Origin: an uncultured Candidatus Saccharibacteria bacterium
Lineage (GTDB): Bacteria; Patescibacteriota; Minisyncoccia; Phycocordibacterales; UBA918
Assembly (NCBI GenBank): GCA_964353135.1
Contig: CAYGTV010000006.1
Location: forward strand, 1 to 40,708
DNA length: 40,708 nucleotides
Reading direction: 5' to 3'
Part shown: positions 5,163 to 19,910 of the stretch, one piece after another
How positions within the stretch are numbered: position 1 is the stretch's first letter
Layout: each line of letters starts with the position of its first letter
The notes under the pieces: model-generated
The model's database searches: none
Seen by the model: the letters and a program-made list of their open reading frames with translations, nothing else
Told to the model about the DNA's origin: nothing
Program-made: the position numbers and the translations under genes

Positions 5163-5939
5163 CTACTGAACTGCCACTGGTCCGGTCAATGTAGCCTGAT
5201 CAATCTGGTTCGTTGCAGTCACGGTTGTTGTTGCGGTATCTACCGCAGACCCCCCACCAATGTTAGTTGGTGGCGATTCTGCGTCTAGTTGCTCTTGTGC
5301 TTCGACCCCATCATCTGAACTAGTTGCTGTTTGTTCAGATGAAGTTGCACTACTAGAAGCGCTTGGCACCAGACCAGCGGCAGGAGCTCGTTTTGTTTGG
5401 TCAGCCGATGGGATCAAACCACCATCAGGAACAGTCGCACGATTTGGAGAAGGTGCAACAATCGTTGGACCATCAACATCAACCATGTTTGCCATCTTGG
5501 CATTTTGCACTCTGATAGTCTCCTCTACGTTGATTTGTCCAGCCGAAGAATCGTTAAACCCAACAGCCGCCGATGCTCCTACCCCCATAATTAGTAAAAC
5601 ACTCACCACTATAATTTGGGTTTTTACGGCGCGCTTTTTTGCGGTCTCGTTAGCAAACACTGTTGGAGCCTTTCGTTTTTTTGTTGCCGCTGCCATGGCC
5701 ATGTCTGTTACCTCCACAACGTCAGTTGCTGAGTCTTCTAGATGTTCCTCGGTCACCACAGCTTTTTTGGGGGCAGTTTTTTTCTTTGGACTGGCTGTTT
5801 TCTTGGTTACGGGTTTTTTTGGGGCAGTTTTTTTCACGTCTGTTTTAGTCACAGTCGCTTTTTTCTTGGGCGCGGCACGACGACGCGTGGTTTTTTTGAC
5901 CACTGTTTCGTCTTCGGTTGTAGCGCTGACTCGAGGCAT
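5163..5939 (-). CDS. membrane protein with histone-H1-like Lys/Ala/Pro-rich N-terminal tail
   Basis: 258-aa ORF; KKTAPKK-type repeats, one central TM (IIVVSVLLIMGVGASAAVGF), Ser/Thr/Ala-rich C-terminal part. Confidence 0.55.
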   Translation of the reverse strand: MPRVSATTEDETVVKKTTRRRAAPKKKATVTKTDVKKTAPKKPVTKKTASPKKKTAPKKAVVTEEHLEDSATDVVEVTDMAMAAATKKRKAPTVFANETAKKRAVKTQIIVVSVLLIMGVGASAAVGFNDSSAGQINVEETIRVQNAKMANMVDVDGPTIVAPSPNRATVPDGGLIPSADQTKRAPAAGLVPSASSSATSSEQTATSSDDGVEAQEQLDAESPPTNIGGGSAVDTATTTVTATNQIDQATLTGPVAVQ

Positions 5940-5981
5940 AGATCAAATCTTAGTATAGCACCTGTTATAATAAAACTGATT

Positions 5982-6785
5982 ATGGAAAACTTGTTAACAA
6001 CCAGTGGATTGCTTGTGGGTATCCTGTTGATTTACTCGGTAGTGATTTTCTTTATCTCCAGGATCGCTCATGACAACAGTGTCATGGATATCGCGTATGG
6101 CCCAGCCTTTCTAGTCGCATCGGCTGGGGCACTGTATCTCAGCGACACAATAGAACTATTACCTACAGTTGTCATTGGATGTATCGCTGCGTGGGCAGTG
6201 CGGCTTGGCAGTCGCGTCTTTCGTAAGAACTTTGGTAAACCGGAGGACCCCCGCTATGCCAAATGGCGAAATCAGTGGATGGAAAAAGGCCGAACGTATT
6301 TTATCATCCGCAGCTACCTACAGGTAAACTTGCTGCAGGTTGGTCTGATTTTTATTATTTTGGCACCAGCGCTCTGGGCGCTAGCATTCCCGACTGACTA
6401 CAACCAATGGTTCGTACTGACCGGATTCATTGTGTTTGTGTTTGGATTAACCTACGAAACAATCGCTGACCTCCAGCTCGATCGCTTCATCGCCGGAAAG
6501 AAAACCGGCACTGAACAAGCCACCTTGATGACGCGCGGACTGTTTGCACTTTCCCGTCGTCCGAACTATTTTGGAGAAACACTCATCTGGTGGGGACTAA
6601 CCATCATGGTACTTCCTCTCCCCTACGGCTGGCTTGCGATCATCAGTCCACTGACCATCACCTACATTGTGACGCGCATCACTGGTCCGATGCTCGAAGA
6701 CTCATTCCTAGAACGCTACCCAGAGGAATACCGACACTACATGCAAACTACCAGCTACTTCATCCCGTGGTTCAAGAAATCATAG
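5982..6785 (+). CDS. DUF1295 family membrane protein (steroid 5-alpha-reductase-like fold)
   Basis: Polytopic; RRPNYFGETLIWWG motif; start moved to ATG 5982 (MENLL) because the tracked 5742 extension is antisense to the previous gene. Confidence 0.75.
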   Translation: MENLLTTSGLLVGILLIYSVVIFFISRIAHDNSVMDIAYGPAFLVASAGALYLSDTIELLPTVVIGCIAAWAVRLGSRVFRKNFGKPEDPRYAKWRNQWMEKGRTYFIIRSYLQVNLLQVGLIFIILAPALWALAFPTDYNQWFVLTGFIVFVFGLTYETIADLQLDRFIAGKKTGTEQATLMTRGLFALSRRPNYFGETLIWWGLTIMVLPLPYGWLAIISPLTITYIVTRITGPMLEDSFLERYPEEYRHYMQTTSYFIPWFKKS

Positions 6786-6793
6786 ATAGAACT

Positions 6794-6820
6794 AAAAAAG
6801 CCCGGCGCATGCGCCGGGCT
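6794..6820. terminator. GC-rich hairpin terminator between convergent genes
   Basis: agcccggc / gccgggct stem preceded by A6 on the plus strand (U-run for the minus-strand transcript). Confidence 0.55.
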
Positions 6821-6860
6821 AGTTGTATCTGCCCGAGTTACCTCGGATAGATCAAAGAAC

Positions 6861-7466
6861 TTATTGGGTGACAGTTGGCGGCACCGGAGCGCCGTTTCCT
6901 GGTGACGCGGTCAGGTTGACTGTTGCGTCGCCGCGCCGGACAACTAGGTTTTGTGCGTAGTCCACATCCACCGGACCAGGGTACACCGTCACCTTTGCTT
7001 CAACGTACATCGGTTCGAGTGCTCCAGAAATACCGAGGCAGAACACCCAGGTCGCCGATGTATTTGTACTTGCAAACACACCGTTTGGTTCCGGCTGACC
7101 GACAGCAACAGCTGCGATCGAACCGCTGGTACCGCGACGGATCCAGTCACCCACCCAAGGATTGGTGAGCGACGTGTCATACGGCAAGCCGTACCCCATG
7201 CTGGGACAGTCACCTTCGACGATGCCGTAGTCAGAGCGCCACACCGAGTGCGTGGTCACTTCCTGGTTACGGACATTGTACAGCTGAATCAGCAAGTCGC
7301 GCTCCAGCGACCAGTCATAAGCCGGGATTGGCTGTCCGATCTGGTACTGCGCCTGCTGCCGTTCAACTGCTTCGGTATCGCGGGCATTTGAGTCTTCTTC
7401 CGGGATACACGCGATCAAAAGTGCAATCGCAGATACCGCTGTCACAGTTTTCAACGAAAGTTTCAT
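6861..7466 (-). CDS. putative lipoprotein, unknown family
   Basis: Signal peptide with lipobox-like LLIAC; 201 aa; start lies 1 nt after the stop of the upstream gene. Confidence 0.6.
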   Translation of the reverse strand: MKLSLKTVTAVSAIALLIACIPEEDSNARDTEAVERQQAQYQIGQPIPAYDWSLERDLLIQLYNVRNQEVTTHSVWRSDYGIVEGDCPSMGYGLPYDTSLTNPWVGDWIRRGTSGSIAAVAVGQPEPNGVFASTNTSATWVFCLGISGALEPMYVEAKVTVYPGPVDVDYAQNLVVRRGDATVNLTASPGNGAPVPPTVTQ

Positions 7467-7467
7467 G

Positions 7468-7830
7468 TTACTTCTCCATCTGGTTGATTTGGATAGTCAG
7501 AGCAGCGGCCTGTGCTTGCAGGTCCGCTCGCTGCACGTCTGTCAGCGAACCCGCTGCCAAGCGTGCCTGGACAGCTGTCAGTTCAGCGTTCATCGTGTTG
7601 AATCGTGCCTCTTGCGCAGCCGAGCGTTGGTAGCTTTGCTCGAACACTTCGCGCTCTACAGCTGTCCGGCCGATGAGCCCGACCGAGTTCAAGCCAAAAC
7701 CAAGCACACTCAGGAAAATCACGAGACCTGCAAATGGCCAAGCAAAGCGCCGCAGTGTCCAGCCTGTCTCACGAGCGATTTCGTCCATATCCTGGCGATA
7801 AGTATCAGTGTCAGATTTACTCTTAGTCAT
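7468..7830 (-). CDS. single-pass membrane protein with C-terminal coiled coil, unknown family
   Basis: 120-aa ORF; AGGAGG SD 5 nt upstream of ATG; TM FAWPFAGLVIFLSVLGFGL. Confidence 0.6.
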   Translation of the reverse strand: MTKSKSDTDTYRQDMDEIARETGWTLRRFAWPFAGLVIFLSVLGFGLNSVGLIGRTAVEREVFEQSYQRSAAQEARFNTMNAELTAVQARLAAGSLTDVQRADLQAQAAALTIQINQMEK

Positions 7831-7903
7831 GTCTGCCTCCTGGCATTGTGAAGTTCATACTGGTGTCATCGAGAACTCTCGACCAGCAGGGGCGTTTGTG
7901 TGT

Positions 7904-7943
7904 GCCCCACACAGGACTATTTGCAACCAGTCCTGTGTGGGGC
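7904..7943. repeat. perfect 15-bp inverted repeat (hairpin or palindromic operator)
   Basis: gccccacacaggact (7904-7918) / agtcctgtgtggggc (7929-7943), 10-nt loop; no U-run on either strand. Confidence 0.8.
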
Positions 7944-7965
7944 GCGTCAGATTTATGTATGAAAA

Positions 7966-7993
7966 GGTTGTGGCCGGCGTACCGCCCACAACC
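7966..7993 (-). terminator. rho-independent terminator after the 28-aa ORF
   Basis: ggttgtgg / ccacaacc stem with inner cgg/ccg pairs; followed on the minus strand by TTTTC. Confidence 0.55.
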
Positions 7994-8000
7994 AAAGGCA

Positions 8001-8087
8001 TTAGTCGGCTTCACGCCAAACATGCCAAACGCAGACACCGATGAACACCAGCACCTTGCTGACAAACATCCAATCAAGAATTGTCAT
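8001..8087 (-). CDS. unannotated 28-aa hydrophobic microprotein
   Basis: ATG preceded by AGGAGGG with a 7-nt spacer, directly after the stop of 8102..8347; translates to MTILDWMFVSKVLVFIGVCVWHVWREAD; terminator follows. Confidence 0.5.
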   Translation of the reverse strand: MTILDWMFVSKVLVFIGVCVWHVWREAD

Positions 8088-8101
8088 TCTTCTACCCTCC
8101 T

Positions 8102-8347
8102 TTAACTCAGGACCATCAGTCCAAAGACAAGCAACCAGGCGTACCAGCGGCGCAACTCACCGCCTGATATAGCAACTGCCTCACGAAAATCGTGAATGAC
8201 CATCGCGTCTTCGATCTGCCCCACCGGAACCGGTTTAGGGTCAGGTGGGTTTGTCAGATACAGCAAGCGCTGTGAGACCTTGTAGGTTTCGATCAGCACA
8301 AGTGTGAGAAAAAACCAGTCAAATCCGTTGAACGATGGAATATCCAT
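8102..8347 (-). CDS. 2-TM small membrane protein, unknown family
   Basis: 81-aa ORF; GGAG 7 nt upstream of ATG; hydrophobic N- and C-terminal segments. Confidence 0.6.
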   Translation of the reverse strand: MDIPSFNGFDWFFLTLVLIETYKVSQRLLYLTNPPDPKPVPVGQIEDAMVIHDFREAVAISGGELRRWYAWLLVFGLMVLS

Positions 8348-8405
8348 GTGTATCTCCGTTCATTGTGAAAGAATTCGCGTCGTCATCTGGACGAACCAGG
8401 ACGCA

Positions 8406-8435
8406 AAAGAGCGTTTCCCAAGGGAAACGCTCTTT
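8406..8435 (-). terminator. 13-bp hairpin (attenuator/terminator) in the leader of the 8347 operon
   Basis: aaagagcgtttcc / ggaaacgctcttt with 4-nt loop; on the minus strand the 3' arm runs into TTTTG; ~60 nt upstream of the 8347 ATG. Confidence 0.5.
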
Positions 8436-8690
8436 GCAAAGCTCTTCTATTACCACACTAAATCTGACTAAAATGTGGCAAAGAAAAGCCTTGCAAGGAA
8501 CCCTTCCTTTGCATGTCAGATTTAGTTGGTTGTAAAAGTGCTTTTTGATGGCTCTTCGCTTCTCTTCCATCACAAGTACTATACTGGCTTTTCTATTTCT
8601 TGTGTAAATATATAGTTCAAAATGTACTGTTTATAACTATTCTTTCTAAATCGATATTGTAAAATAAGTTTGATTTATGTATCAAAAGTT

Positions 8691-8705
8691 GTACTATTGT
8701 AGTAC
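8691..8705. promoter_or_regulatory. palindrome GTACTAttgTAGTAC abutting the TrmB-like gene start (candidate operator)
   Basis: 6+6 inverted repeat 2 nt before ATG 8708; further GTACT copies at about 8576 and 8624. Confidence 0.35.
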
Positions 8706-8707
8706 AT

Positions 8708-9436
8708 ATGAAACTAAAAACCCGCCTAGAGGCACTAGGGCTCACCAAAGCCGAAGCAGCAGTATATGTGGACTTGCTCATCCATGGTATCCAGACCGTT
8801 TCAAGCATCGCCCGCACCAGCCAGCTACATCGCCCGGCGATTTATCGCGCCCTTCCCTCTCTCAAGCAAAAGGGACTGGTGACCGCACGCCAAGTTGGCA
8901 AGCTGGTCCACTACGCCGCCGAGCCACCCGAGCGGTTAAACAGTCTCGTACACACCTTTCAAAATGAACTTGACGAGTTGGTACCGACCCTCAACCAGAT
9001 CCAGCACAAAAGTACCCCCATCGTCCGCCGATTAAATGGTAAAGCTGGCGTGTATGCCGTGTATGAGGACATCGTAAACACTCTCAAAAAAGGTGAAGAG
9101 TTCTATCGCTATAACGCCGCCAGTCACGAGGACCTACTTAAAACCGGCTTACCTAAAAAATACGAACAACTCCGTGACGAAAAACAGCTCGAGCGACTGG
9201 TGATCTCGAACCCTGACTACATCAAATCACGTGAACCACGGCTCGAGGATTCGCTCGTGGTCGTGCCAGAAAATTTCTGGCCGTTTGACTACAATGTGTC
9301 CCAGATCATCTACGGCGACAAAATCGCCTTTATCGACTACACCCTCCCGATCGCTACCATCATCACCAACCCAACCTTGGCCAAATTCCAAAAAGATATT
9401 TTTATGATGCTGTATCGGCAGTTGAGGAATAAGTAG
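8708..9436 (+). CDS. TrmB-family HTH transcriptional regulator
   Basis: N-terminus LGLTKAEAAVYVDLLIHGIQTVSSIARTSQLHRPAIYRALPSLKQKGLV matches the TrmB winged-helix pattern. Confidence 0.75.
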   Translation: MKLKTRLEALGLTKAEAAVYVDLLIHGIQTVSSIARTSQLHRPAIYRALPSLKQKGLVTARQVGKLVHYAAEPPERLNSLVHTFQNELDELVPTLNQIQHKSTPIVRRLNGKAGVYAVYEDIVNTLKKGEEFYRYNAASHEDLLKTGLPKKYEQLRDEKQLERLVISNPDYIKSREPRLEDSLVVVPENFWPFDYNVSQIIYGDKIAFIDYTLPIATIITNPTLAKFQKDIFMMLYRQLRNK

Positions 9437-9499
9437 TAATTGACTTTTATTTAAATAAATGACTTAATAGCCAAAGAAAGCAGGACGAAAGGACACCCC

Positions 9500-9895
9500 A
9501 TGCTTCCACCACCCGGACCAGAACGTATCGAAGCTATTGCAGCTGAAATCGACAAGATGAGCGGCCGTTGGAAAACCATCAGCGAGTCACAATTTGAAGA
9601 CTACACTTCTTTGATGGCTACGCAGGCAGATGATCTTGCTATACAGCCAGTCTCATGTGCGATATCGATCTTAACCGCAACCAATCCTCCAGCAACTGTC
9701 GGCGAAACTGTCGAGATGCTCGAGGTGACTGTAATGTACTGTGGCTGTGGCATGGTTTTTGACAAAGAGGCCATTCTCAAAGGGATAATTTGGGCATGGT
9801 CTGGAGAATGCAACGGGCCGTCCATGGAGGCACCGCATATTGCCCAGAAGGTTCGTAGCCTCATTCCACTTTTGCGTGACCCAGCTTCCTACTGA
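9500..9895 (+). CDS. hypothetical protein (131 aa)
   Basis: ORF downstream of the TrmB-like gene on the same strand; no family recognised. Confidence 0.5.
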   Translation: MLPPPGPERIEAIAAEIDKMSGRWKTISESQFEDYTSLMATQADDLAIQPVSCAISILTATNPPATVGETVEMLEVTVMYCGCGMVFDKEAILKGIIWAWSGECNGPSMEAPHIAQKVRSLIPLLRDPASY

Positions 9896-9920
9896 TCATC
9901 AGACGAACGCCGCACCAACA

Positions 9921-9954
9921 AGAAACGCCACATCGTTTCAGGTGTGGCGTTTCT
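9921..9954 (+). terminator. rho-independent terminator
   Basis: agaaacgccac / gtggcgtttct 11-bp stem, 12-nt loop, then TATTAT. Confidence 0.6.
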
Positions 9955-10013
9955 TATTATCTAACTTTTATATACAGCTTCCTGCAGTAAATCAAAGCTA
10001 CTGCGCACCTTCT

Positions 10014-10310
10014 CTACCCCCCCATCTCTGTCGCTACTGCATTACTTCCATACTTAGTAGCAATGAGAGCCGCCAAGTCATTAAAGGCTTCAAAACCATT
10101 TTGCTCATACTGTAGCAACACAAAGTTAATAAACTCATTGAGCTGTTCATTCTCTGAATCTACAAAAGACATGTCAGCCACAGTAGCTCGCTGTCCTCGA
10201 CTAATTATTTCTTTATCAAACGCAATGAATCGAAGTAAGTCGTACACGTCAGAATCTTCAGCTTTGAAGGCTTCCCGGAGCGTCAGCAGTTTTTCCAACT
10301 GCAGCATCAC
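10014..10310 (-). CDS. stand-alone type I restriction HsdR C-terminal (EcoEI_R_C-like) domain protein; possible remnant
   Basis: AEDSDVYDLLRFIAFDKEIISRGQRA ... FINFVLLQYEQNGFEAF ... KYGS follows the EcoEI_R_C pattern; only 98 aa, no helicase or nuclease part. Confidence 0.6.
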   Translation of the reverse strand: MMLQLEKLLTLREAFKAEDSDVYDLLRFIAFDKEIISRGQRATVADMSFVDSENEQLNEFINFVLLQYEQNGFEAFNDLAALIATKYGSNAVATEMGG

Positions 10311-10401
10311 GTTTATTGGCGACTACGCCTGATACACTACACATTCGTGCTCTCCCGATAGTTTATGTTTCAAAATCCAGGGTACCTGCCCCAGACTTAT
10401 G

Positions 10402-10430
10402 AATATATGCTGACACGTATGAGCTGTCAA
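10402..10430 (-). promoter_or_regulatory. near-consensus sigma70-type promoter for 10310 gene
   Basis: Minus strand TTGACA-N17-TATATT (plus 10425-10430 / 10402-10407). Confidence 0.55.
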
Positions 10431-10436
10431 CTTTCG

Positions 10437-10694
10437 TTACCTAAAATGTACAAATACTCGGCCGTGGTTTTTGGCGTCTACTTCTACTCTTTTGTATAGC
10501 GGTTTGATGTCTTTTCGGACTAGAAACTTTTTCACCCGCTTCATCAGTTGACCAGTCCCCTTGCCAGGGATGATCTCGGCCGTTTTAATTCGCTTCTGCA
10601 CAGCAGTGGCAAATAATTCTTCCAACGCTTCGTCGATCGCGCTGCCATTTTTAGCAACCGCATGCAGATCAAGATGTGCAACTGACTTTGACAT
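10437..10694 (-). CDS. Smr (small MutS-related) domain protein
   Basis: LDLHAV...AEIIPGKGTGQLMKRVKKFL layout of the Smr domain (LDLHG / GKG motifs, G to A in the first). Confidence 0.7.
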   Translation of the reverse strand: MSKSVAHLDLHAVAKNGSAIDEALEELFATAVQKRIKTAEIIPGKGTGQLMKRVKKFLVRKDIKPLYKRVEVDAKNHGRVFVHFR

Positions 10695-10723
10695 ACATGT
10701 ACTATACCGTGCCGGGCAGACTC

Positions 10724-10993
10724 TTACTTCCCCCAGCCAAACGCGCCTGGTTTACTCCCATACTGGTCCCACCATTTCACGCCCGCATATAGTCCCAGCA
10801 GCAAACCAGCCAGCCACAATGCAGATCCTGCAACCGCGTGGATCAATTTCCACTGCGTCCACCAGACACTTTCGGCATGTGCCGGGTTACCAAAAATCAC
10901 ATCAAGCGCCACCAACTCAACCACAGCGTGGATGACAGTAGCCACAATCAACCCCAGAAATCCAAATAGAATTATGTATACAAGTTTTTTCAT
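10724..10993 (-). CDS. 2-TM small membrane protein
   Basis: 89-aa ORF with two hydrophobic helices; starts 22 nt after the DUF262-HNH stop. Confidence 0.6.
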   Translation of the reverse strand: MKKLVYIILFGFLGLIVATVIHAVVELVALDVIFGNPAHAESVWWTQWKLIHAVAGSALWLAGLLLGLYAGVKWWDQYGSKPGAFGWGK

Positions 10994-11015
10994 TTATTCA
11001 ACCAGTTCTTCAATA

Positions 11016-12179
11016 CTAGTGATTCCCCTTAGCGCGATTATGAGTCTTACATAGTAGCTGACAGTTACTTGCATCAGTAGTGCCACCCTTACTCCAAGCA
11101 GTAACATGATCGGCATCCATCTCTTTTAATAACCACACTTTACCTTTACTAGAATCATGACCAATTGCACACAGTGGACAATTTGACACACCATTAGACT
11201 TTGCCAGCTTTGTTTGAACTGAGTATATACTTTTTTTTGTGGCTTCATCAAAAACACGTACATTTAGCAACTTAGACTCCTTCATTCCACCCAAAACGTA
11301 CTCAAAAATACCTTTTCTATTTTTAACATACGGGTCTGAATATAATTTATGGACTTGCTCTGATACTTTTTTAGGGTTATAAGAATTTTTGTAATACTTA
11401 CTATATAACCGACCCCACTCGAGACCACACATTTCACTTTCAACATCAATAAACACACCAGATACCCAATCAATCACACTGTTAAAATAATTTTTAAGCT
11501 CAGTTATATTCGAATCATTACGATGAAAACTCATATAGCCATCAATATCTCCTTCACTAACCCAATCTATTGCACGCTCCAAAAAGTCTTGACGATTAAC
11601 ACTACCAGAAACATATGCACTCCATTTTTGAACATTTGCGTTTTGAGTATTACTAAATTCCTCTTTGGCTAAAGTTACAAATTGACCTGAATAAATGGCA
11701 TTTAGCAACTCTTGTGGTTTCAGTGGAACACCAGCAATATTTATAGTTTTAAACCAATCTTTTATTTCACTCTCAGTTCCTTCACATTCATATACAAGGA
11801 GTTTAGTCTTAAGGATGAGATCCTGCTTATCTTTAGGCAGTCCACTAAAATATTGCTGCATACCATCTGCATCTTTAATGGGAAGTTTTCCTGTAACAAA
11901 ACGCCCTATACTGGTAATGCGCTGCTGCCCGTCTAGAATTTCAAGATTGCCGTCTGTATTTTTATTAAAATATAGGAGGCCGATAGGATAGCCTTTCAAA
12001 ATTGACTCAATCACAGCAACGTCTCTTTTTCCGTCGGCGTAGATATAGTTCCTCTGATACTCTGGTTGAATCATCAATTTACCAGAAAGCCCAAATAGAC
12101 CTCTTGCCTCAAGTTCGTTATACACAAATCCGTCGCAAACATCTTCAATCGAAACCTCTGTTTGTAGTTCTGTTTTCAT
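11016..12179 (-). CDS. DUF262 (ParB/GmrSD-N-like) + C-terminal HNH endonuclease
   Basis: [10 protein letters not shown] and [10 protein letters not shown] (DGQQR) motifs at the N-terminus; CPLC...[12 protein letters not shown]...[17 protein letters not shown] finger at the C-terminus. Confidence 0.8.
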
Positions 12180-12186
12180 AAAAAAT

Positions 12187-13383
12187 CTATCTTTTATGCT
12201 TTATAAAAATTCTCATGTAAAGTGATGTGACTATCCTTTTTTTATTGTTCATATAATAGGTCTTTCCATCATTTTTTCCAAGTAGAATTGGAGCCTCATC
12301 AATCTTTCGTCCATTTGAACCCTCGACTGTATCGTCGCTTGTCATCTGCACATAGCTGTCGTATTTTTTTGTATCTGGCAAATCATCATGACAACCCCTT
12401 TGAGCCATACCAACTATTTCAAATTGATTAGGTGAGTGTTTACTGAGAAAACTTATTGGAACACCCATCACTCCATCATAGTCACTAGGAATATACTTCA
12501 CTTGAGGGACTTCAATTGCATCATAGTTATCATATTTTTGAAAAGGTTTTTTAAGACCAAATTTTACAACCTCGTCTTGTGTCATCAGCGGTATTGATTG
12601 ATATCTTTTACCATGATCTAGGTTAGTGAACCAAATTGTACCTGCAACAAAAGCATATTTTTTACCATCTTCTTGTTTGTGAAACTTTTCATAATGATCT
12701 GGCACTTGATACCAAACGTTCCGTCCGTCGTTTTTTCCTGCGCCCAACCACATCTTGTTATCCTTCAAAAGTGGAAAAATTTCTTTGTATGTAATGGCAT
12801 TCATATTGCCAATTATCAAGAACTTTTTATTGTGAGTAATGAGCTGTTTAACATAATCCCTAAATAAACTAAAAGGCGGATTGGTAACAACAATATCCGA
12901 TTCCTTGAGAAGCTCTATACACTCATCACTACGAAAATCACCATCTCCTTCAAGGGGGGTCCATTCATTATTCTTATTGGTTTTTAACTGTAGTGCTACA
13001 TCTTTTAAATTAAATTGACCATCACCATCAATATCTCCAACTTCATTAATCACAAATTTGTTCGCGTTGACTTTTGGTCGACCTTTTAGCTTCACCAAAC
13101 TTTTATCATCGCCAAACAAACCTATTTGGGTATTCGCTACAGGCGACGGTTTATAACTAGTTGTAATAAGTCGTTTTAACCCCAGTCTGTTGAAGTTCAA
13201 AACAAAATAACGAAAAAAATTACTTTCGTAGGGATCGTCTGCGTTGCAGTAAACGACTTTATTACTAAAGGATTTAGGGTCGTATTCCAAGTAAGATTCT
13301 ATTTCTTTTTGAATATCACCATACTGAGTATAGAATTCATCATTTTTCCCGCGTTTTGCCTCGGTGAGATGATTTTTGGCCAT
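12187..13383 (-). CDS. EcoRI-family N6-adenine DNA methyltransferase
   Basis: N-terminal NDEFYTQ, catalytic [13 protein letters not shown] (NPPF), [16 protein letters not shown]; stop lies 7 nt before the nuclease start. Confidence 0.8.
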
Positions 13384-13537
13384 TTGATATATAGACTACC
13401 ACCTCCCCCCTCTTTCCTCAATCGGCCTTGGCTGTAGATGACTAGGTCACCCAAAACAATTTGCAGGATTGGGTTTTAGATGTAGAGTGTTTATAGACGA
13501 TAAAATAGCACGCAACCCCTAGGCGCAGGAGGGCCTC

Positions 13538-14158
13538 ATGAAACTTACACTATGTATCGCGTCTTTCTGCACACTGTTGTTGCAGACTGTACCAGCACAC
13601 GCACAAGACAGGAGTAGTGCACACATAATCATTGCCGCCGACCATAGCGTCAGCATGTATTTGAGCGGACATATGAGAATGCAAACCCGTAGCTTGATTA
13701 CAGCTATGGATAATTACATGGAAACCTGTAGGGATGTCAGGATGACATACCTCCCATGGGGTACAACCGTTGGTGATATGCATACCTTTATGCTTAATGA
13801 TCAGCAGGAACGGGCTGAATTCCAACTCCTGCTCGACAGCGACCAGAACACGCAAGCGTTTGGAGGTACAAAGCATTTGTATGGCCTACATGGTGCTTTG
13901 CACCTATTTGAGCTGTACGACTCTGATTTCAAACTGCTGGTATTTATCACCGATCAGAGCGGGCGCGGTGTGAATGAAATAATGCCAGCACAGGTTCAAC
14001 TTTACAAAATTGCTCTGGGCGACGGCCAGGTCAGAAGTTACATGAAAAACAGCTTTATGCCGGAGGCTGGGTATCCCTTCCATGCCCGTACGGATATAGA
14101 GCTGACCGAACTGCTCGATCACGCCCTGAAGATAACAGATGTGGGTTGTTTGGGTTGA
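13538..14158 (+). CDS. secreted vWA-like (DUF1194-like) protein
   Basis: Signal peptide ending AHA-QD; IIIAADHSVSM resembles a DxSxS MIDAS; overall order resembles DUF1194; by-eye call only. Confidence 0.45.
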   Translation: MKLTLCIASFCTLLLQTVPAHAQDRSSAHIIIAADHSVSMYLSGHMRMQTRSLITAMDNYMETCRDVRMTYLPWGTTVGDMHTFMLNDQQERAEFQLLLDSDQNTQAFGGTKHLYGLHGALHLFELYDSDFKLLVFITDQSGRGVNEIMPAQVQLYKIALGDGQVRSYMKNSFMPEAGYPFHARTDIELTELLDHALKITDVGCLG

Positions 14159-14163
14159 ACTCG

Positions 14164-14194
14164 GGGCCTCCAGCTTTTGCTGGGGGCTCTTTTT
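14164..14194 (+). terminator. rho-independent terminator
   Basis: ~10-bp stem around loop TTTT (ggcctccagc / gctgggggct with G-U pairs), followed by TTTTT. Confidence 0.55.
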
Positions 14195-14224
14195 CGTAAT
14201 ACAAGGTATACTCAAATTATAACT

Positions 14225-14869
14225 ATGAAAACTATGTTCTATGTAATTGGAGGAATCGTTGGACTACTAGTTGTATGGGCGTTGGGTTCATATCTAGCTG
14301 TACGAAATCTAGAAGAGCCAAGCTACACCGTAACTGAGAAAAAAGACGGGTACGAGCTGCGACAGTATGATCCATATATAGTAGCGGAAACAGTGGTGAG
14401 CGCTAGTGAATACAACCGCGACATCAGCAACGGCTTTCGAGCGGTGGCGGGATACATTTTTGGTGACAATACTACAAAAGAAAAAATTTCGATGACGACA
14501 CCAGTACTAGAGCAGCCTGGCGACCGAAGTGAGAAAATCGCGATGACCGTACCAGTGCTCGAGGGATCGTCCGACAGCGCTACCCGAACCGTGGCGTTTG
14601 TCCTACCGAGCAACTACACCCTCGATACCCTTCCCACCCCAAACAACGAGGCGGTGAAGCTACGCGCTGTGGACGGACGAAAAGTGGCTGCGCTACGATT
14701 TACCTGGTACGGGACACCAGCACGAGTGGCGAGCAAGAAAGCCTGGCTACTGGAGCAGCTGGAGCAAGATGGGTTCACCGTCGTAGGTGAACCCCAGGCC
14801 GCGTTTTACAACCCGCCACTGTCGATGCCGCTGGTGCTGCGAAATGAGATCTTGATCGAGGTGGAGTAA
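14225..14869 (+). CDS. SOUL heme-binding family protein with N-terminal TM anchor
   Basis: EEPSYTV...YELRQY...GFRAVAGYIFGDN...ISMTTPV...IAMTVPV...FYNPP motifs; ATG 14225 chosen because the tracked TTG 14177 lies inside the upstream terminator. Confidence 0.8.
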   Translation: MKTMFYVIGGIVGLLVVWALGSYLAVRNLEEPSYTVTEKKDGYELRQYDPYIVAETVVSASEYNRDISNGFRAVAGYIFGDNTTKEKISMTTPVLEQPGDRSEKIAMTVPVLEGSSDSATRTVAFVLPSNYTLDTLPTPNNEAVKLRAVDGRKVAALRFTWYGTPARVASKKAWLLEQLEQDGFTVVGEPQAAFYNPPLSMPLVLRNEILIEVE

Positions 14870-14884
14870 ATGGTGTTATTCACC

Positions 14885-14913
14885 TTGCAAAACAACGCTT
14901 CTCCTAGTATATT
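14885..14913 (+). promoter_or_regulatory. sigma70-type promoter candidate upstream of infC
   Basis: TTGCAA-N17-TATATT. Confidence 0.45.
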
Positions 14914-14992
14914 TTGAAACAGCAATACGCCGCTGCGGACTTTGGTCACTGACCTCGCAGACGCGTAACGTTATAAAATAAACCCCATTCAC

Positions 14993-15685
14993 TTGCCAGC
15001 ACCACAACGACGATTCAGCGGACCAGATACCCGAACCAAGATTAACAAGGCTATTCGTGCGCCGGAGCTGCGTGTGGTTGGACCTGATAACGAAAACCTG
15101 GGAACTCTTTCCCTGGCTGACGCGCTAAAAAAAGCTGACGAAATGAAGCTCGACCTGATCGAGATTTCACCAAAGGCAAAACCACCGGTAGCCAAAATCA
15201 CTGATTTTGGACAGTACCGGTACGATACCAAGCGAAAAGCTAGCGCCGCCAAAGCCAAAGCACACGTGACTGAAACCAAGAGTGTCCAGGTAAAAATCGG
15301 AACTGGTGAACACGACCAACTCCTCAAAGCCAAACGTGCCGCTGAGTGGCTCCAGGAGGGTCACCGAGTAAAAGTCGACTTGTTCCTGTGGGGGCGATAT
15401 AAATACATGGAGTCTGACTTCCTCAAGGAACGACTGGACCGGTTCCTCAAGATCATCCCAGCAGAATACAAACTGGCTGATCCGATGAAAAAGAGTCCAA
15501 AAGGCTGGACAGCGACCCTCGAACGACTCGGGAAAGCACCAAAAGCTGGCGATCGACCAAAAATCATCGAGGAAGTCGATGTGAAGAAGGCTGCTAAAAA
15601 AGCCGAGAAGCCAGCCAAAGATGCAAACAAATCAAAGAAAAAGTCACTGGATGACTTGCTCGATATCGAAGGAGGGTTGATATAA
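14993..15685 (+). CDS. infC: translation initiation factor IF-3 with Lys-rich C-terminal tail
   Basis: INKAIRAPELRVVGPDNENLG...DLIEISPKAKPPVAKITDFGQYRY...; no in-frame ATG; TTG 14993 or ATT 14987 possible. Confidence 0.85.
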   Translation: MPAPQRRFSGPDTRTKINKAIRAPELRVVGPDNENLGTLSLADALKKADEMKLDLIEISPKAKPPVAKITDFGQYRYDTKRKASAAKAKAHVTETKSVQVKIGTGEHDQLLKAKRAAEWLQEGHRVKVDLFLWGRYKYMESDFLKERLDRFLKIIPAEYKLADPMKKSPKGWTATLERLGKAPKAGDRPKIIEEVDVKKAAKKAEKPAKDANKSKKKSLDDLLDIEGGLI

Positions 15686-16533: not shown

Positions 16534-16881
16534 ATGGCACGTGTAAAAGGAGGGCTAATGGCCCAGAAGCGAAAACGAAATATCCTAGACGAAGTGAAAG
16601 GATACCGGTTTGGACGCTCAACTAAAAAAGCGCAAGCTCGAGAAGCAATCTACCACGCACAAACCTACGCGTTTGCTCACCGAAAAGACAAGAAGAACGA
16701 CTTCCGTCGACTGTGGACAGTCCGAATCAATGCCGCACTGATGGAACACGGAATCAAGTACAGCCGATTCATCGATATGTTGAAAAAAGCTGACATCCAA
16801 CTCGACCGAAAGATCATGGCTCAACTAGCAGTTGAACAACCAGAATCATTTGCCCGAGTCGTAGCAGAAGTAAGTAAATAA
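16534..16881 (+). CDS. rplT: 50S ribosomal protein L20
   Basis: MARVKGG...KGYRFGRS...YAFAHRKDKKNDFRRLWTVRINAA. Confidence 0.95.
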   Translation: MARVKGGLMAQKRKRNILDEVKGYRFGRSTKKAQAREAIYHAQTYAFAHRKDKKNDFRRLWTVRINAALMEHGIKYSRFIDMLKKADIQLDRKIMAQLAVEQPESFARVVAEVSK

Positions 16882-16894
16882 ACGTTACAAGCAG

Positions 16895-16926
16895 AAAGGC
16901 CCGCGGAATCATCCGAGGGCCTTTTT
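16895..16926 (+). terminator. rho-independent terminator after rplT
   Basis: aaaggccc...gggccttt stem with an inner cgga/tccg helix, followed by TTTTT; overlaps the 3' end of the convergent gene. Confidence 0.6.
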
Positions 16927-17592
16927 GTGTGGGACTGTGTAGTACCTGATCAAGTAGCTGTACCACAGAATATACACAGCAACGTGGATCATCAGCATGT
17001 ACGTGAAACTGTATGAGGTATACACCATAAGTGTAGGATAGACAGTGGCCAGACCTGTGGAAGACCAGATAAAAAATCCACCAAACAACCGACCAAACAA
17101 CCACCAGCTAGGAATATGGATCACAAATACAATGACCGTAAACAGGACTGTCATCGCCAACAATCCAAGACCTAATGCCAATAGCCCAGACAGTATCATC
17201 AGCGCGCACAACTGCTGAAAACAAATTTCGGTAATCTTGACCGTTTGTCCTGCTGCCGTCGGACACAACTCTATCTGTGCCGTTGGTGGAATTCCGAACA
17301 TTTGGCAATGATCGAGTCCGGACATACGTTCATGTTGCATCACACCAAATACACAGTAACCAGCCACGAGCACGCAGATCGCGACCGCGGTCTCGTAACC
17401 TGCTATAAACAGCTGTTGATTGGCAAGCATCAGCAGCAGCGCTATAGAGCTTGTAGCGTACAAGACCACATAACTCACAGGCGCTGTAGTGTACGACATC
17501 GCGTACTGTCTTTTCAAAATAGAGTTAACAAACCCCAAAACGATTCCAAATGACAGACAGCCAATCAGAATCAACTGTATACCGTAAGTCAT
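16909..17592 (-). CDS. polytopic Cys-rich membrane protein, unknown family (paralog A)
   Basis: 227 aa, about 6-7 TM; shares VIHIP...GRLFG...STGLA...HVAVYIL blocks with 18134..18796. Confidence 0.65.
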   Translation of the reverse strand: MTYGIQLILIGCLSFGIVLGFVNSILKRQYAMSYTTAPVSYVVLYATSSIALLLMLANQQLFIAGYETAVAICVLVAGYCVFGVMQHERMSGLDHCQMFGIPPTAQIELCPTAAGQTVKITEICFQQLCALMILSGLLALGLGLLAMTVLFTVIVFVIHIPSWWLFGRLFGGFFIWSSTGLATVYPTLMVYTSYSFTYMLMIHVAVYILWYSYLIRYYTVPHKKALG

Positions 17593-17615
17593 TTTGCACC
17601 CCTCTTCCCACGTTT

Positions 17616-17684
17616 CTACGTTGAACTTTCTATATCCAGATTACAGAAAATACCCAGACTGCGCAAGCCGACAGAACACATCAT
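17616..17684 (-). CDS. possible 22-aa upstream ORF / leader peptide
   Basis: GGGGAGAG SD, 6-nt spacer, ATGATG...; MMCSVGLRSLGIFCNLDIESST; stops 23 nt before the paralog-A ATG. Confidence 0.25.
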   Translation of the reverse strand: MMCSVGLRSLGIFCNLDIESST

Positions 17685-17760
17685 CGCTCTCTCCCCACTC
17701 AATTGCATAAGCAAGCAATTCGCTATGTATAATAAAGCTGTAACACGTACAACGTATGAC

Positions 17761-17790
17761 TAACAAAGCCACCTCGCGGTGGCTTTGTTA
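17761..17790. terminator. perfect 13-bp hairpin within the paralog-A leader
   Basis: taacaaagccacc / ggtggctttgtta, loop tcgc; only a weak U-run (TTGTTA). Confidence 0.45.
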
Positions 17791-17885
17791 GTTTCAGTAT
17801 TACTTTGTATCTGATAGAGCACTTTGTAGTAGATCGTTTACTTGCGTGTCTACTATATTCTATCTGACTTGCTTCAATGCTGATG

Positions 17886-18030
17886 TTCCCTCGTTGCCTG
17901 AAACGAGTTCCGGCAGGTTGGGTTGTTTCCCTAGCTCGCGTACCAAGCAGTACGCTTCAAGTGGGTGTAACACGATAGGTTCACCCGGAGGCTTCCCTAC
18001 CAACGTATGAGAGATAAATCCCTCGTACGT
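17886..18030 (-). promoter_or_regulatory. candidate structured cis-regulatory leader (riboswitch-like; weak resemblance to cobalamin riboswitch core)
   Basis: Downstream of a TTGCCA-N16-TATAAT promoter; four AGGGA(A/T) motifs; hairpins GGGTG/CACCC, GCGTAC/GTACGC, CTCGTT/AACGAG; GGTAGGGAAGnnnnnGGGTGAA and ACCTGCCGG strings. Confidence 0.35.
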
Positions 18031-18036
18031 ATCTGC

Positions 18037-18064
18037 ATTATATTCTTCTCACCCAACTTGGCAA
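18037..18064 (-). promoter_or_regulatory. sigma70-type promoter candidate
   Basis: Minus strand TTGCCA-N16-TATAAT (plus 18059-18064 / 18037-18042). Confidence 0.5.
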
Positions 18065-18133
18065 GCAAAACGCTACTTACAGATTACTTTATGAAAAAGT
18101 AAACAGTAGATTTGTTGTCGGGTATAGCTTGTA

Positions 18134-18796
18134 TCAGATTCTACCTTTATACATTTGCATCGACCGCGATACGATAAGTAATAATACGTACACTGACAAA
18201 TGGAACGTAAAGACATAATAAAATCCGTACACAAATGTATCTATCACCCACGGTATAAAAAGGGCAAAACCAGTGGAAAGTATCGTTAAAGCAACACCGT
18301 ATATCCTTCCAATGATTAGCGGAGCCGGAATATGCACCACAAGTACAACCAGCGCAAATAGTAAACCTGCCGTCAAATGACTGACGTTCATCAGCAAAAG
18401 CTGAGTCACTACCAGTAGCATAACGACATCCTGTACAAGCACCTCTCCCGCTTTTGAAAAAGCTGAGCTTAGGTTGGGTTTGAGTAATTGGTAGTATGAC
18501 TCAGACAAAGTGTCTACCCCATACATATCATCGAGACTGTACCGCCTACCCCACCAACTACAAAAGAGAGCGTACGAGGTAAAAGCTGCAATACCAATGA
18601 GTATGCCAGTAGGATTTGTAAACGACTGATTTTGGCTGAGTGAAGTTGTCAGCCACATTCCAGCAACACCTGAGAGAAACAAACTCACAAAAACAACGAC
18701 GTTTTTTTGATACGTAATACCAAAGAATGTCTGGAGTATGTTTGCAGCCCCAGCCAGAACGGCGAACCACAGAATTGCTACTAAGATTTCAAACAT
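18134..18796 (-). CDS. polytopic membrane protein, unknown family (paralog B)
   Basis: 220 aa; VVHIPAPLIIGRIYG...STGFALF...FHLSVYVLL blocks shared with paralog A. Confidence 0.65.
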   Translation of the reverse strand: MFEILVAILWFAVLAGAANILQTFFGITYQKNVVVFVSLFLSGVAGMWLTTSLSQNQSFTNPTGILIGIAAFTSYALFCSWWGRRYSLDDMYGVDTLSESYYQLLKPNLSSAFSKAGEVLVQDVVMLLVVTQLLLMNVSHLTAGLLFALVVLVVHIPAPLIIGRIYGVALTILSTGFALFIPWVIDTFVYGFYYVFTFHLSVYVLLLIVSRSMQMYKGRI

Positions 18797-18841
18797 GGAA
18801 GAATATAAATTAAGCCAAAAAGATTATTGCAACTTCTGTGG

Positions 18842-19231
18842 TTATACAATTAAACATTTAGTGTAACCCTGTTCGACCAGATAATTGTACGCTGACCATA
18901 CTTCGCCAGGAATGTCCTGTTCAATTTGGAAGCCTTTTGCTGGATACTCCCTGATACGTTGCAAGTCTCCAACCATTGCATGTAGCCAATGATCATTATC
19001 AGGTGCAAAACCTGCCTCGTACTCTTCTAAAGTCAACTGCGGAGAGGTTGCGAGGATTTCTTTATCAGGCCACCACAGTTTTCCGGTCGCGTAGGTTCGA
19101 CGTTCCATATACGGTTTTTGCACCGCAATCACGGTATGAATTTTTATCCCGTTTTCTTCAAGAAGTCTGGTTGTGAATTCATAGTTCTGGCCAGTATTTT
19201 GAGATTTATTTTCAATAAACAATGTTCTCAT
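18842..19231 (-). CDS. N-terminally truncated DUF218 (YdcF/ElyC-like) domain protein
   Basis: Begins at the ENKSQNTGQN (E.S.NT.EN) mid-domain motif; in-frame stop 5 codons upstream; start lies 1 nt after the DedA-like gene stop. Confidence 0.6.
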   Translation of the reverse strand: MRTLFIENKSQNTGQNYEFTTRLLEENGIKIHTVIAVQKPYMERRTYATGKLWWPDKEILATSPQLTLEEYEAGFAPDNDHWLHAMVGDLQRIREYPAKGFQIEQDIPGEVWSAYNYLVEQGYTKCLIV

Positions 19232-19232
19232 G

Positions 19233-19910
19233 TTACTTGTTTCTTAATGATTTTCTTAACTGCCAGATTCCAACCACAATCATTATTGAAGCTGAATAAT
19301 AGAGTGTTTCAAAACCCTCCTCATTACTCAAATCATTTAAATCAATTGTATAAGCGAGGATTATTGTCACTACTCCCATAAAAAAACTAGCTAGAAATTT
19401 TACTTTTACTGATGATAGGAAAATGGATCGGGGATTGCCACCTGACACAGCTTGAGCCACTTCGTAATTAGCGCGAAACGCTGGAAACCAAGTCGTTAAT
19501 ATTCTGTCTTTAATTTCATAATCAGTGTTTTCTATAGTGCCATATCGCTTTCCAAACCAAATATTGATTAATCCAGACAATACCCACCCAACAAAAATCG
19601 TTGCGACCGTTGCACCAAACATACCCCATCCATTTGTTTGCGAAAGCACTGCCAGCACAACCACTACCGATGAACCCGGAATGAAACTACCTAAAAAATA
19701 CAAACCTTCTATAAAAATAGCGACAAAAGCAGCCAGCAATATCCACCACCCAGACAGACTTTCTAGCCAACTTATGAGCTGTTCAAGTCCGGGAATATCA
19801 TGAATTAAGATACCGACTGTTGCATATACTGTTAGCCCTAAGCCTGCAGCTAACCAGACTAATCCTGATCTAAATAGTGATGTATCCGTCATACTAAAAA
19901 TCAATTTCAA
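19233..19910 (-). CDS. DedA/VTT-family membrane protein
   Basis: FIEGLYFLGSFIPGSSVV (VTT motif) and GKRYG; TTG 19910 overlaps the upstream gene by 17 nt; alternative ATG 19892. Confidence 0.7.
   Translation of the reverse strand: MKLIFSMTDTSLFRSGLVWLAAGLGLTVYATVGILIHDIPGLEQLISWLESLSGWWILLAAFVAIFIEGLYFLGSFIPGSSVVVVLAVLSQTNGWGMFGATVATIFVGWVLSGLINIWFGKRYGTIENTDYEIKDRILTTWFPAFRANYEVAQAVSGGNPRSIFLSSVKVKFLASFFMGVVTIILAYTIDLNDLSNEEGFETLYYSASIMIVVGIWQLRKSLRNK

Follow-up and report, generated by a model that had tools for sequence, protein, structure and literature searches.

A coupled EcoRI-family methyltransferase and DUF262-HNH nuclease as a predicted restriction-modification cassette on a Candidatus Saccharibacteria contig

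Genes and domains of the cassette

The window analysed here is the whole of contig CAYGTV010000006.1 (40,708 nucleotides, nt) from an uncultured Candidatus Saccharibacteria bacterium. Two adjacent genes on its minus strand encode an EcoRI-family DNA methyltransferase (MTase, or M) and a nuclease (R) in which a DUF262 domain is joined to an HNH domain, and the pair was analysed as a candidate restriction-modification (R-M) cassette. The MTase is the first gene of the operon. The features of the cassette are given below.

12187..13383, minus strand: open reading frame (ORF) of 398 amino acids (aa), EcoRI-family N6-adenine DNA MTase, predicted protective M subunit (PF13651; PADLOC PDLC03297; NPPF motif)
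12244-12423: hypervariable, indel-rich internal loop of the MTase, residues ~321-380 (column identity and gaps)
12180..12186, minus strand: spacer ATTTTTT, 7 nt, A/T only, between the MTase stop and the nuclease ATG, without a Shine-Dalgarno (SD) sequence
11016..12179, minus strand: ORF of 387 aa, DUF262 (ParB/Srx-like)-helical-HNH nuclease, predicted restriction subunit (PADLOC, Pfam, AlphaFold2, Foldseek)
11691..12074, minus strand: ParB/Srx-like DUF262 domain of the nuclease, residues 36-163 (PF03235; invariant Q42-R43 and D83-G-Q-Q-R87)
11181..11690, minus strand: all-alpha middle region of the nuclease, residues ~164-333 (AlphaFold2 model, DSSP)
11019..11180, minus strand: Zn-ribbon HNH domain of the nuclease, residues 334-387 (PF01844; C334-x2-C337, C373-x3-C377)

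The first protein was identified in Pfam as EcoRI_methylase (PF13651) over its full length (residues 6-397, E 1.5e-120), and it matched the PADLOC model MTase_II (PDLC03297, "Type II methyltransferase") at full length as well (1.9e-103). Motif IV, NPPF, lies at residues 167-170. It thus shares Pfam family and catalytic motif with the MTase of the EcoRI R-M system. R.EcoRI itself, a PD-(D/E)XK enzyme, has no relation to the DUF262-HNH nuclease. NCBIfam offers no model for the MTase or for the nuclease. Among MTase relatives, column identity is 0.6-0.8 in the catalytic core and 0.2-0.4, with up to 50% gaps, at residues ~321-380. This loop of 10-70 aa lies between a conserved "QFEIxG" and the terminal "Y.RIxIK" and occurs as discrete types, and it could be a determinant of specificity. 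A role of the variable region as a C-terminal extension docking the nuclease was considered and rejected, since orphan phage MTases and nuclease-paired MTases share the same loop types, with similar lengths. The stretch of the MTase gene that encodes the conserved NDEFYTQ motif contains a GAATTC site (13333-13338). In the whole contig there are 8 GAATTC sites, which are not depleted under a Markov model; CAATTG and AATT are not depleted either, so that no target site is indicated by these 40.7 kb, a length of low statistical power.

The nuclease matched the PADLOC model REase_II (PDLC03418, "Type II restriction enzyme") almost from end to end (5.8e-84; residues 10-386 against 9-371 of 372). 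Its N-terminal part is GmrSD_N/DUF262 (PF03235, E 2.5e-22, residues 36-163) and its C-terminus is an HNH domain (PF01844, E 2.1e-7, residues 344-386), while DUF1524 (PF07510) gave no match in Pfam at E <= 0.1. When the DUF262 domain was compared with the PADLOC models, the Menshen protein NsnA was the closest (1.6e-29), and GmrSD-like HEC models were far behind at ~1e-5. The conservation of residues was assessed in an alignment of 58 nucleases that are 40-80% identical to the window protein. Invariant in this alignment are Q42-R43 and D83-G-Q-Q-R87, which are nucleotide-binding motifs of the ParB/Srx type, the zinc ligands C334/C337 and C373/C377, and the HNH catalytic residues D357-H358, N372 and H380-N381. 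In related ParB-fold proteins the DGxQR motif touches the beta and gamma phosphates (PMC12065111). The DUF262 domain is therefore predicted to be a ParB/Srx fold with a phosphate-binding motif of the DGxQR type that may bind a nucleoside triphosphate (NTP).

The AlphaFold2 model of the nuclease (pLDDT 79, pTM 0.61) consists of an N-terminal alpha/beta domain, an all-alpha middle and a C-terminal beta-beta-alpha unit. The middle region has 11 helices (DSSP) at pLDDT 80-95, and the HNH unit is formed by strands 354-356 and 375-377 followed by a helix at 378-385. An alpha-helical DNA-binding domain, termed ParBDB, follows DUF262 in NsnA, SspE, GmrSD and DndB (PMC12065111), and by analogy the middle region of the nuclease is probably its counterpart. 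PHROG families 2598 and 1583 reach residues 244-256 of the nuclease. Foldseek searches of the PDB gave BrxU (7p9k), of the GmrSD family, as the top match, followed by ParB and Noc, both CTP-switch proteins, and then by sulfiredoxin and the Gme HNH nickase. These form a coherent group, but the whole-chain matches are all weak (best E 1.2e-3, TM 0.22) and serve as fold-level support only. Those to ParB-CDP/CTPgS, Noc and sulfiredoxin-ATP range from E 1e-2 to 0.8. Searches of the PDB by the sequence of either protein or by the family profile were marginal (BrxU E 0.079, McrA 0.42), as were the sequence matches of the HNH domain to McrA (6ghc) and Gme HNH (4h9d).

The spacer of 7 nt lacks an SD sequence, implying that translation of the nuclease is coupled to that of the MTase, as judged from this arrangement. 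In relatives the junction is typically of a few nt (e.g. 7-11 nt) or an overlap, barring a passenger gene. The GC content is 0.35-0.37 over 11001-13500 and 0.43-0.55 on either side in a sliding window; taken as a whole, the cassette has 0.361 against 0.482 for flanks of 4 kb on each side, the contig being at roughly 46-48% GC. TAGTCT is found 9 nt ahead of the MTase ATG, and GGAGGT lies 17 nt upstream, beyond the normal SD distance. These results agree with the first-pass annotation, which had been made from the letters alone. It had described two minus-strand genes 7 nt apart, of 398 and 387 aa, exactly as the ORFs are found, and all the motifs it quoted for MTase and nuclease are present. 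Its assignment of an EcoRI-like N6-adenine MTase and of a DUF262 protein ending in HNH rather than DUF1524 was borne out by the profile searches that it had proposed. The A+T-rich islet was evident in the sliding-window GC, and its remarks on the missing SD sequence and the TAGTCT box hold, GGAGGT being too distant.

Distribution and linkage of the two genes

The nuclease has at least 8,000 homologs. Those among the matches listed are 74-80% identical, nearly all of 387 aa, come from Patescibacteria, Bacteroidetes and Ignavibacteriae, and are named "DUF262 domain-containing protein" or "McrA". A second subfamily of 369 aa, ~41% identical to the window protein and equally abundant, occurs in gut Clostridia. 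An exhaustive search of 50%-identity representatives yielded 442 nuclease clusters at E <= 1e-30, mostly of 360-420 aa and aligned end to end, and 525 relatives were confirmed when one genome per species was scanned. Among these 525 loci, the best 80 span more than 15 phyla and include a metagenome-assembled genome of a Woesearchaeota archaeon.

The annotated pair is also found on a 9-kb Moraxella osloensis plasmid, Enterococcus faecium resistance plasmids, actinobacterial plasmids and an Aeromonas IncP plasmid, and in the Flavobacterium phage laban6-1; RefSeq labels the adjacent plasmid genes 'EcoRI family methyltransferase' and 'DUF262 domain-containing protein'. The cassette of E. faecium pBN83-1 (L002) and of the related large plasmids H2-H10, with a nuclease 64% identical to that of the window, lies a few kb from erm(A), optrA and a truncated Type ISP R-M gene. 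Cultured carriers include Tenacibaculum sp. A30, Olleya sp. R77988 and Maribacter algarum RZ26, besides E. faecium with pBN83-1 and Moraxella osloensis with pSKB0120-6. At 61 loci the GC content of the cassette is narrow (0.384 +/- 0.042) against host flanks of 0.28-0.57, and it is lower than that of the flanks at 38 of them. A narrow GC in hosts of variable GC is consistent with frequent recent transfer. The family is thus large and mobile, reaching from Patescibacteria to Actinobacteria, an archaeon, resistance plasmids and phages. Fusions of COG1479/DUF262 ParB-like domains to HNH, linked to R-M genes, were described by Makarova et al. in 2013 (PMC3632139).

The co-occurrence survey that the first-pass annotation had called for was carried out from both genes. 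With the nuclease as anchor, in the best 80 of the 525 genome loci, an EcoRI-family MTase was found upstream on the same strand at 72. At the remaining 8 the contig end leaves no room or, at L010 and L072, passenger genes are followed by the contig end. A nuclease without the MTase was found at none of the 72 informative loci. With the MTase as anchor, viral contigs were surveyed, an orphan being called only where at least 1.3 kb of downstream room was available. Of 76 informative viral loci, 55 have the nuclease downstream (48 complete and 7 truncated) and 21 lack it. The latter lie in phage genomes, often beside other MTases; these are orphans with the usual look of phage anti-restriction methylases. 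Thus, the nuclease is never seen without the MTase, and the MTase is often seen without the nuclease, as would fit a lethal restriction enzyme and its protective MTase. The M-to-R linkage persists down to 37-45% nuclease identity, on plasmids of Actinobacteria, Firmicutes and Proteobacteria and in the Flavobacterium phage.

At 11 loci one or two genes lie between M and R, encoding RhuM, Bro-N, an AAA_15/OLD-like ATPase or DUF2130, and the junction is a recurrent insertion point. Genes of these four kinds are frequent passengers in R-M operons. Passengers were noted at L011, L012, L020, L023, L049, L055, L065, L070, L075, L084, L010 and L072, some of them unknown. A gene for a 65-aa XRE-type helix-turn-helix (HTH) protein is present in the closest relatives (80% identity), where it ends a few nt before the MTase start. 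Such genes, of 65-87 aa and ending 3-15 nt before the MTase, are present at ~11 of 111 informative loci and belong to five unrelated sequence types, all of which match HTH_3 (L248 4600-4797, L249, L005, L054, L071, L092, L096/L099/L101/L131 and L126). In position and size they resemble the controller (C) proteins of R-M systems. The window, unlike C-protein-controlled R-M operons, has no gene for an HTH regulator, and a C-like HTH query gave no match in it.

A single polypeptide of 688 aa in the representative library (P0319) combines EcoRI_methylase, GmrSD_N and HNH. It is possibly a natural M-R fusion or else an artefact of an indel or frameshift joining the coupled genes, and little weight is given to it. 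Maribacter algarum RZ26 (L078 1693-3866) has a single nuclease preceded by two EcoRI-family MTases in tandem, which share 47% and 45% identity with that of the window. Across 6,786 locus pairs the two genes co-diverge (r = 0.58), and clearly discordant pairs, with nuclease identity of at least 85% and MTase identity of at most 60%, number two. Where the nuclease is at 35-50% identity the MTase mean is 46%, so that deep divergence is similar for both.

A proposed methylation-blocked module and its rivals

The pair is best read as a methylation-blocked R-M module of the kind filed as Type II, to which we assign a probability of about 0.78. By this reading, the EcoRI-family MTase would methylate adenine at N6 within a short target on host DNA, and the DUF262-helical-HNH protein would cut DNA lacking that N6-methyladenine (m6A) mark through its Zn-ribbon HNH active site. 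The MTase would be translated first and the coupled nuclease after it, and protection would be set up before restriction. The DUF262 domain would not read foreign modifications here; together with the helical domain it would most likely serve in DNA binding or dimerisation and as a nucleotide-dependent switch licensing the HNH. The cassette itself is a self-contained unit of promiscuous mobility that has inserted into a variable island. Comparative grounds suggest that host viability in the presence of the nuclease depends on the MTase.

In favour of the Type II assignment are the full-length PADLOC models, the one-way co-occurrence, the C-protein-like genes, the invariant HNH and zinc residues, the 688-aa fusion, the co-divergence of M and R, the narrow GC of the cassette and the absence of the island in close relatives (see below). 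HNH (beta-beta-alpha-Me) restriction enzymes are known from Type II R-M systems such as those of KpnI, Hpy99I, PacI and NlaIII/SphI. The family resembles them in a separate MTase and a single-polypeptide HNH nuclease within one operon, a Zn-ribbon Cys4 HNH, an optional upstream C-protein-like HTH gene, the occurrence of phage orphan MTases and high mobility. It differs from them in the N-terminal ParB/Srx-like DUF262 domain with its intact nucleotide-binding motif, and in that the nuclease family is more conserved than the MTase.

Several points weigh against the Type II assignment. In 68 paired loci the mean pairwise identity is 77.7% for the nuclease, with almost no indels, and 57.9% for the MTase, a contrast exaggerated by the choice of these loci by nuclease similarity. 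Restriction enzymes, Type IIP enzymes included, usually diverge faster than their methylases, and the order seen here is the reverse. Type II enzymes do not depend on NTP, yet a dependence of this kind is suggested by the invariant DGQQR. The PADLOC label records how its authors filed the family and not a measured activity. No biochemically characterised member was found in the searchable literature, REBASE being outside this scope, and it is from comparison that we infer cleavage, site and cofactors. The DUF262 nucleases studied so far, GmrSD, BrxU and SspE, are all modification-dependent or modification-sensing (PMC12707154, PMC12065111).

This last point would favour a nuclease that acts as a Type IV enzyme on a foreign modification, in the manner of GmrSD, BrxU and SspE, with the MTase marking self DNA or hitchhiking. 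The nuclease shares with these enzymes the N-terminal DUF262 (QR, DGQQR), a helical region and a C-terminal His-Me finger nuclease, and BrxU is its best structural match. It ends, in contrast to them, in a PF01844 HNH with four zinc-binding cysteines and not in DUF1524, its 387 aa compare with a BrxU chain of 587 aa, and its match to the PADLOC Type II restriction enzyme is far stronger than that of GmrSD-like HEC models. Type IV enzymes need no MTase and are typically solitary, whereas at all 72 informative loci this family is preceded by its cognate MTase, contrary to the pattern expected of a Type IV enzyme that acts by itself. Moreover, more than 15 phyla share the fixed gene order and coupling, which hold even at 37% identity, and some loci carry C-protein-like regulators. 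A Type IV role is thus very improbable. The closest DUF262 sub-type, Menshen NsnA, is a ParB-DUF262 and ParBDB sensor, and like the window protein it has an all-alpha domain after DUF262; the window, however, has no genes for the NsnB ATPase and the NsnC effector, its nuclease is fused in cis and its partner is a DNA MTase.

The first-pass annotation had called the dedicated MTase paradoxical and the pair atypical, offering either a new architecture of a methylation-blocked restriction enzyme or a self-marking MTase combined with a sensor for a foreign modification. The paradox arises when DUF262 is assumed to read modified bases; the comparison of loci suggests that here it tolerates or requires unmodified DNA, a possibility raised by the authors of the Menshen study (PMC12065111). 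Of the two, the methylation-blocked enzyme of the first explanation is favoured by the evidence. Its novelty does not stand, since existing defence-gene models already recognise the pair as a predicted Type II R-M family, RefSeq annotates it, it occurs in hundreds of species and a precedent dates from 2013. The self-marking alternative is disfavoured by the strictly one-directional co-occurrence. On the methylation-blocked reading the window would carry a commonplace R-M cassette of recent acquisition, and no paradox is left.

A mechanism closer to Type III, gated by NTP, has also to be weighed. In it the MTase, through its variable loop, would set the specificity and the nuclease would have little or none of its own; the nuclease would be recruited at unmethylated sites, where a ParB-like switch (clamp closure or one-dimensional sliding, cf. 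ParB-CTP) would precede the HNH cut. As in mod-res operons, M is followed by R, R pairs an NTP-binding module with a nuclease, the degree of conservation is higher in R than in M, and M varies mainly within one region. The nuclease is uniform and without indels beside an MTase of conserved core and a hypervariable loop of discrete types, a few loci pair 85%-identical nucleases with 51-54%-identical MTases, Q42, R43 and DGQQR are invariant, ParB and Noc, which work by a CTP switch, are among the structural neighbours, and there is the M-R fusion. A superfamily 2 (SF2) helicase/ATPase or ResIII domain was, however, not detected in the nuclease with Pfam, NCBIfam or PADLOC, and the MTase is of the EcoRI family and not a Type III Mod. 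An M-R complex is not evidenced, and the loop types are common to orphan phage MTases, so that they do not dock the nuclease and may be neutral variation. M and R mostly co-diverge as a unit, the nuclease's own helical domain of ~170 residues could read sequence, the fusion may be an indel artefact, and the apparent conservation of the nuclease is inflated by sampling according to query similarity. A Type III-like mechanism, the main rival of the Type II reading, is considered unlikely.

On a related view, which we rate as a long shot, DUF262-HNH proteins would form a large class of nucleotide-gated restriction enzymes in which a ParB-like NTP (possibly CTP) switch loads at, or slides from, unmethylated sites, with specificity perhaps supplied by the EcoRI-family MTase. 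If this were true, the enzymes would be functionally analogous to Type III restriction, with a ParB clamp in the place of the helicase, and DUF262 would be a general DNA-licensing switch and not a reader of modified bases.

The least probable reading, to which we give very little credence, is a selfish addiction or homing module, composed of an HNH homing endonuclease and a protective methylase, without a real role in defence. The extreme horizontal spread (71-80% identity across phyla, plasmids and phages) and the frequent location in variable islands would suit it. Such selfishness is compatible with an R-M mechanism, Type II R-M modules being known as addiction modules, but neither flanking repeats nor a conserved insertion target is seen, and the orphan phage MTases of the family imply real restriction pressure. 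If the methylation-blocked Type II reading is right, the family would be the clearest natural case of a DUF262 nuclease expected to act on unmodified DNA. It would lend itself to finding out the role of the ParB-like domain in GmrSD, SspE, BrxU and Menshen, and it may yield a new restriction specificity.

The island around the cassette

The cassette sits in a variable island of ~8 kb between a gene for a DUF1295 membrane protein and infC. The same locus is also present on a second assembly of 25 kb. The island and the region upstream of the operon are delimited as follows.

6821..14204 (up to 6780-14883), no strand: lineage-specific variable island with the cassette (blastn synteny breakpoints, mosaic GC)
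13384..13537, no strand: presumed promoter region, divergent intergenic, 154 nt, upstream of the MTase and without a C-protein gene

The island was compared with relatives of 87-94% IF-3 identity. In one of them (L173) the sequences corresponding to 5890-6820 and 14205-15675 of the window lie 0.9 kb apart, against 7.4 kb in the window itself, and in another (L171) the whole of 6780-14883 is missing, the DUF1295 gene lying 10 bp from infC. These empty sites came from an IF-3-based scan; a scan with the 206-aa neighbour found nothing. The GC content of the island is mosaic, 0.53-0.56 at 6.5-8 kb and 0.36 at the R-M genes. No direct or inverted repeats were found flanking and delimiting the islet, and promoter and terminator scans of it were at chance level. 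Among the scanned neighbouring ORFs there is no integrase, as the first-pass annotation had remarked, nor a tRNA, another defence gene or a further PADLOC match.

The island also carries a TrmB regulator, a stand-alone Smr protein, an EcoEI_R_C fragment and a SOUL protein. The similarity of the fragment (10014-10310, minus strand, 98 aa) to Type I R subunits is confined to their C-terminal domain (EcoEI_R_C, PF08463, E 7.4e-8). It is situated ~700 nt from the cassette and probably represents what is left of a decayed Type I R-M system (HsdR), which suggests that the island was a host of defence genes earlier. A second segment of ~3 kb (~16880-19895), with ORFs at 16909-17592, 18134-18796, 18842-19231 and 19233-19910 that are mostly without Pfam matches, is also missing or replaced in L173 and L171. 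The Smr protein of the island (10437-10694, minus strand, 85 aa; PF01713, E 2.6e-11) has a homolog in the relative L231, where it lies between the DUF1295 gene and infC.

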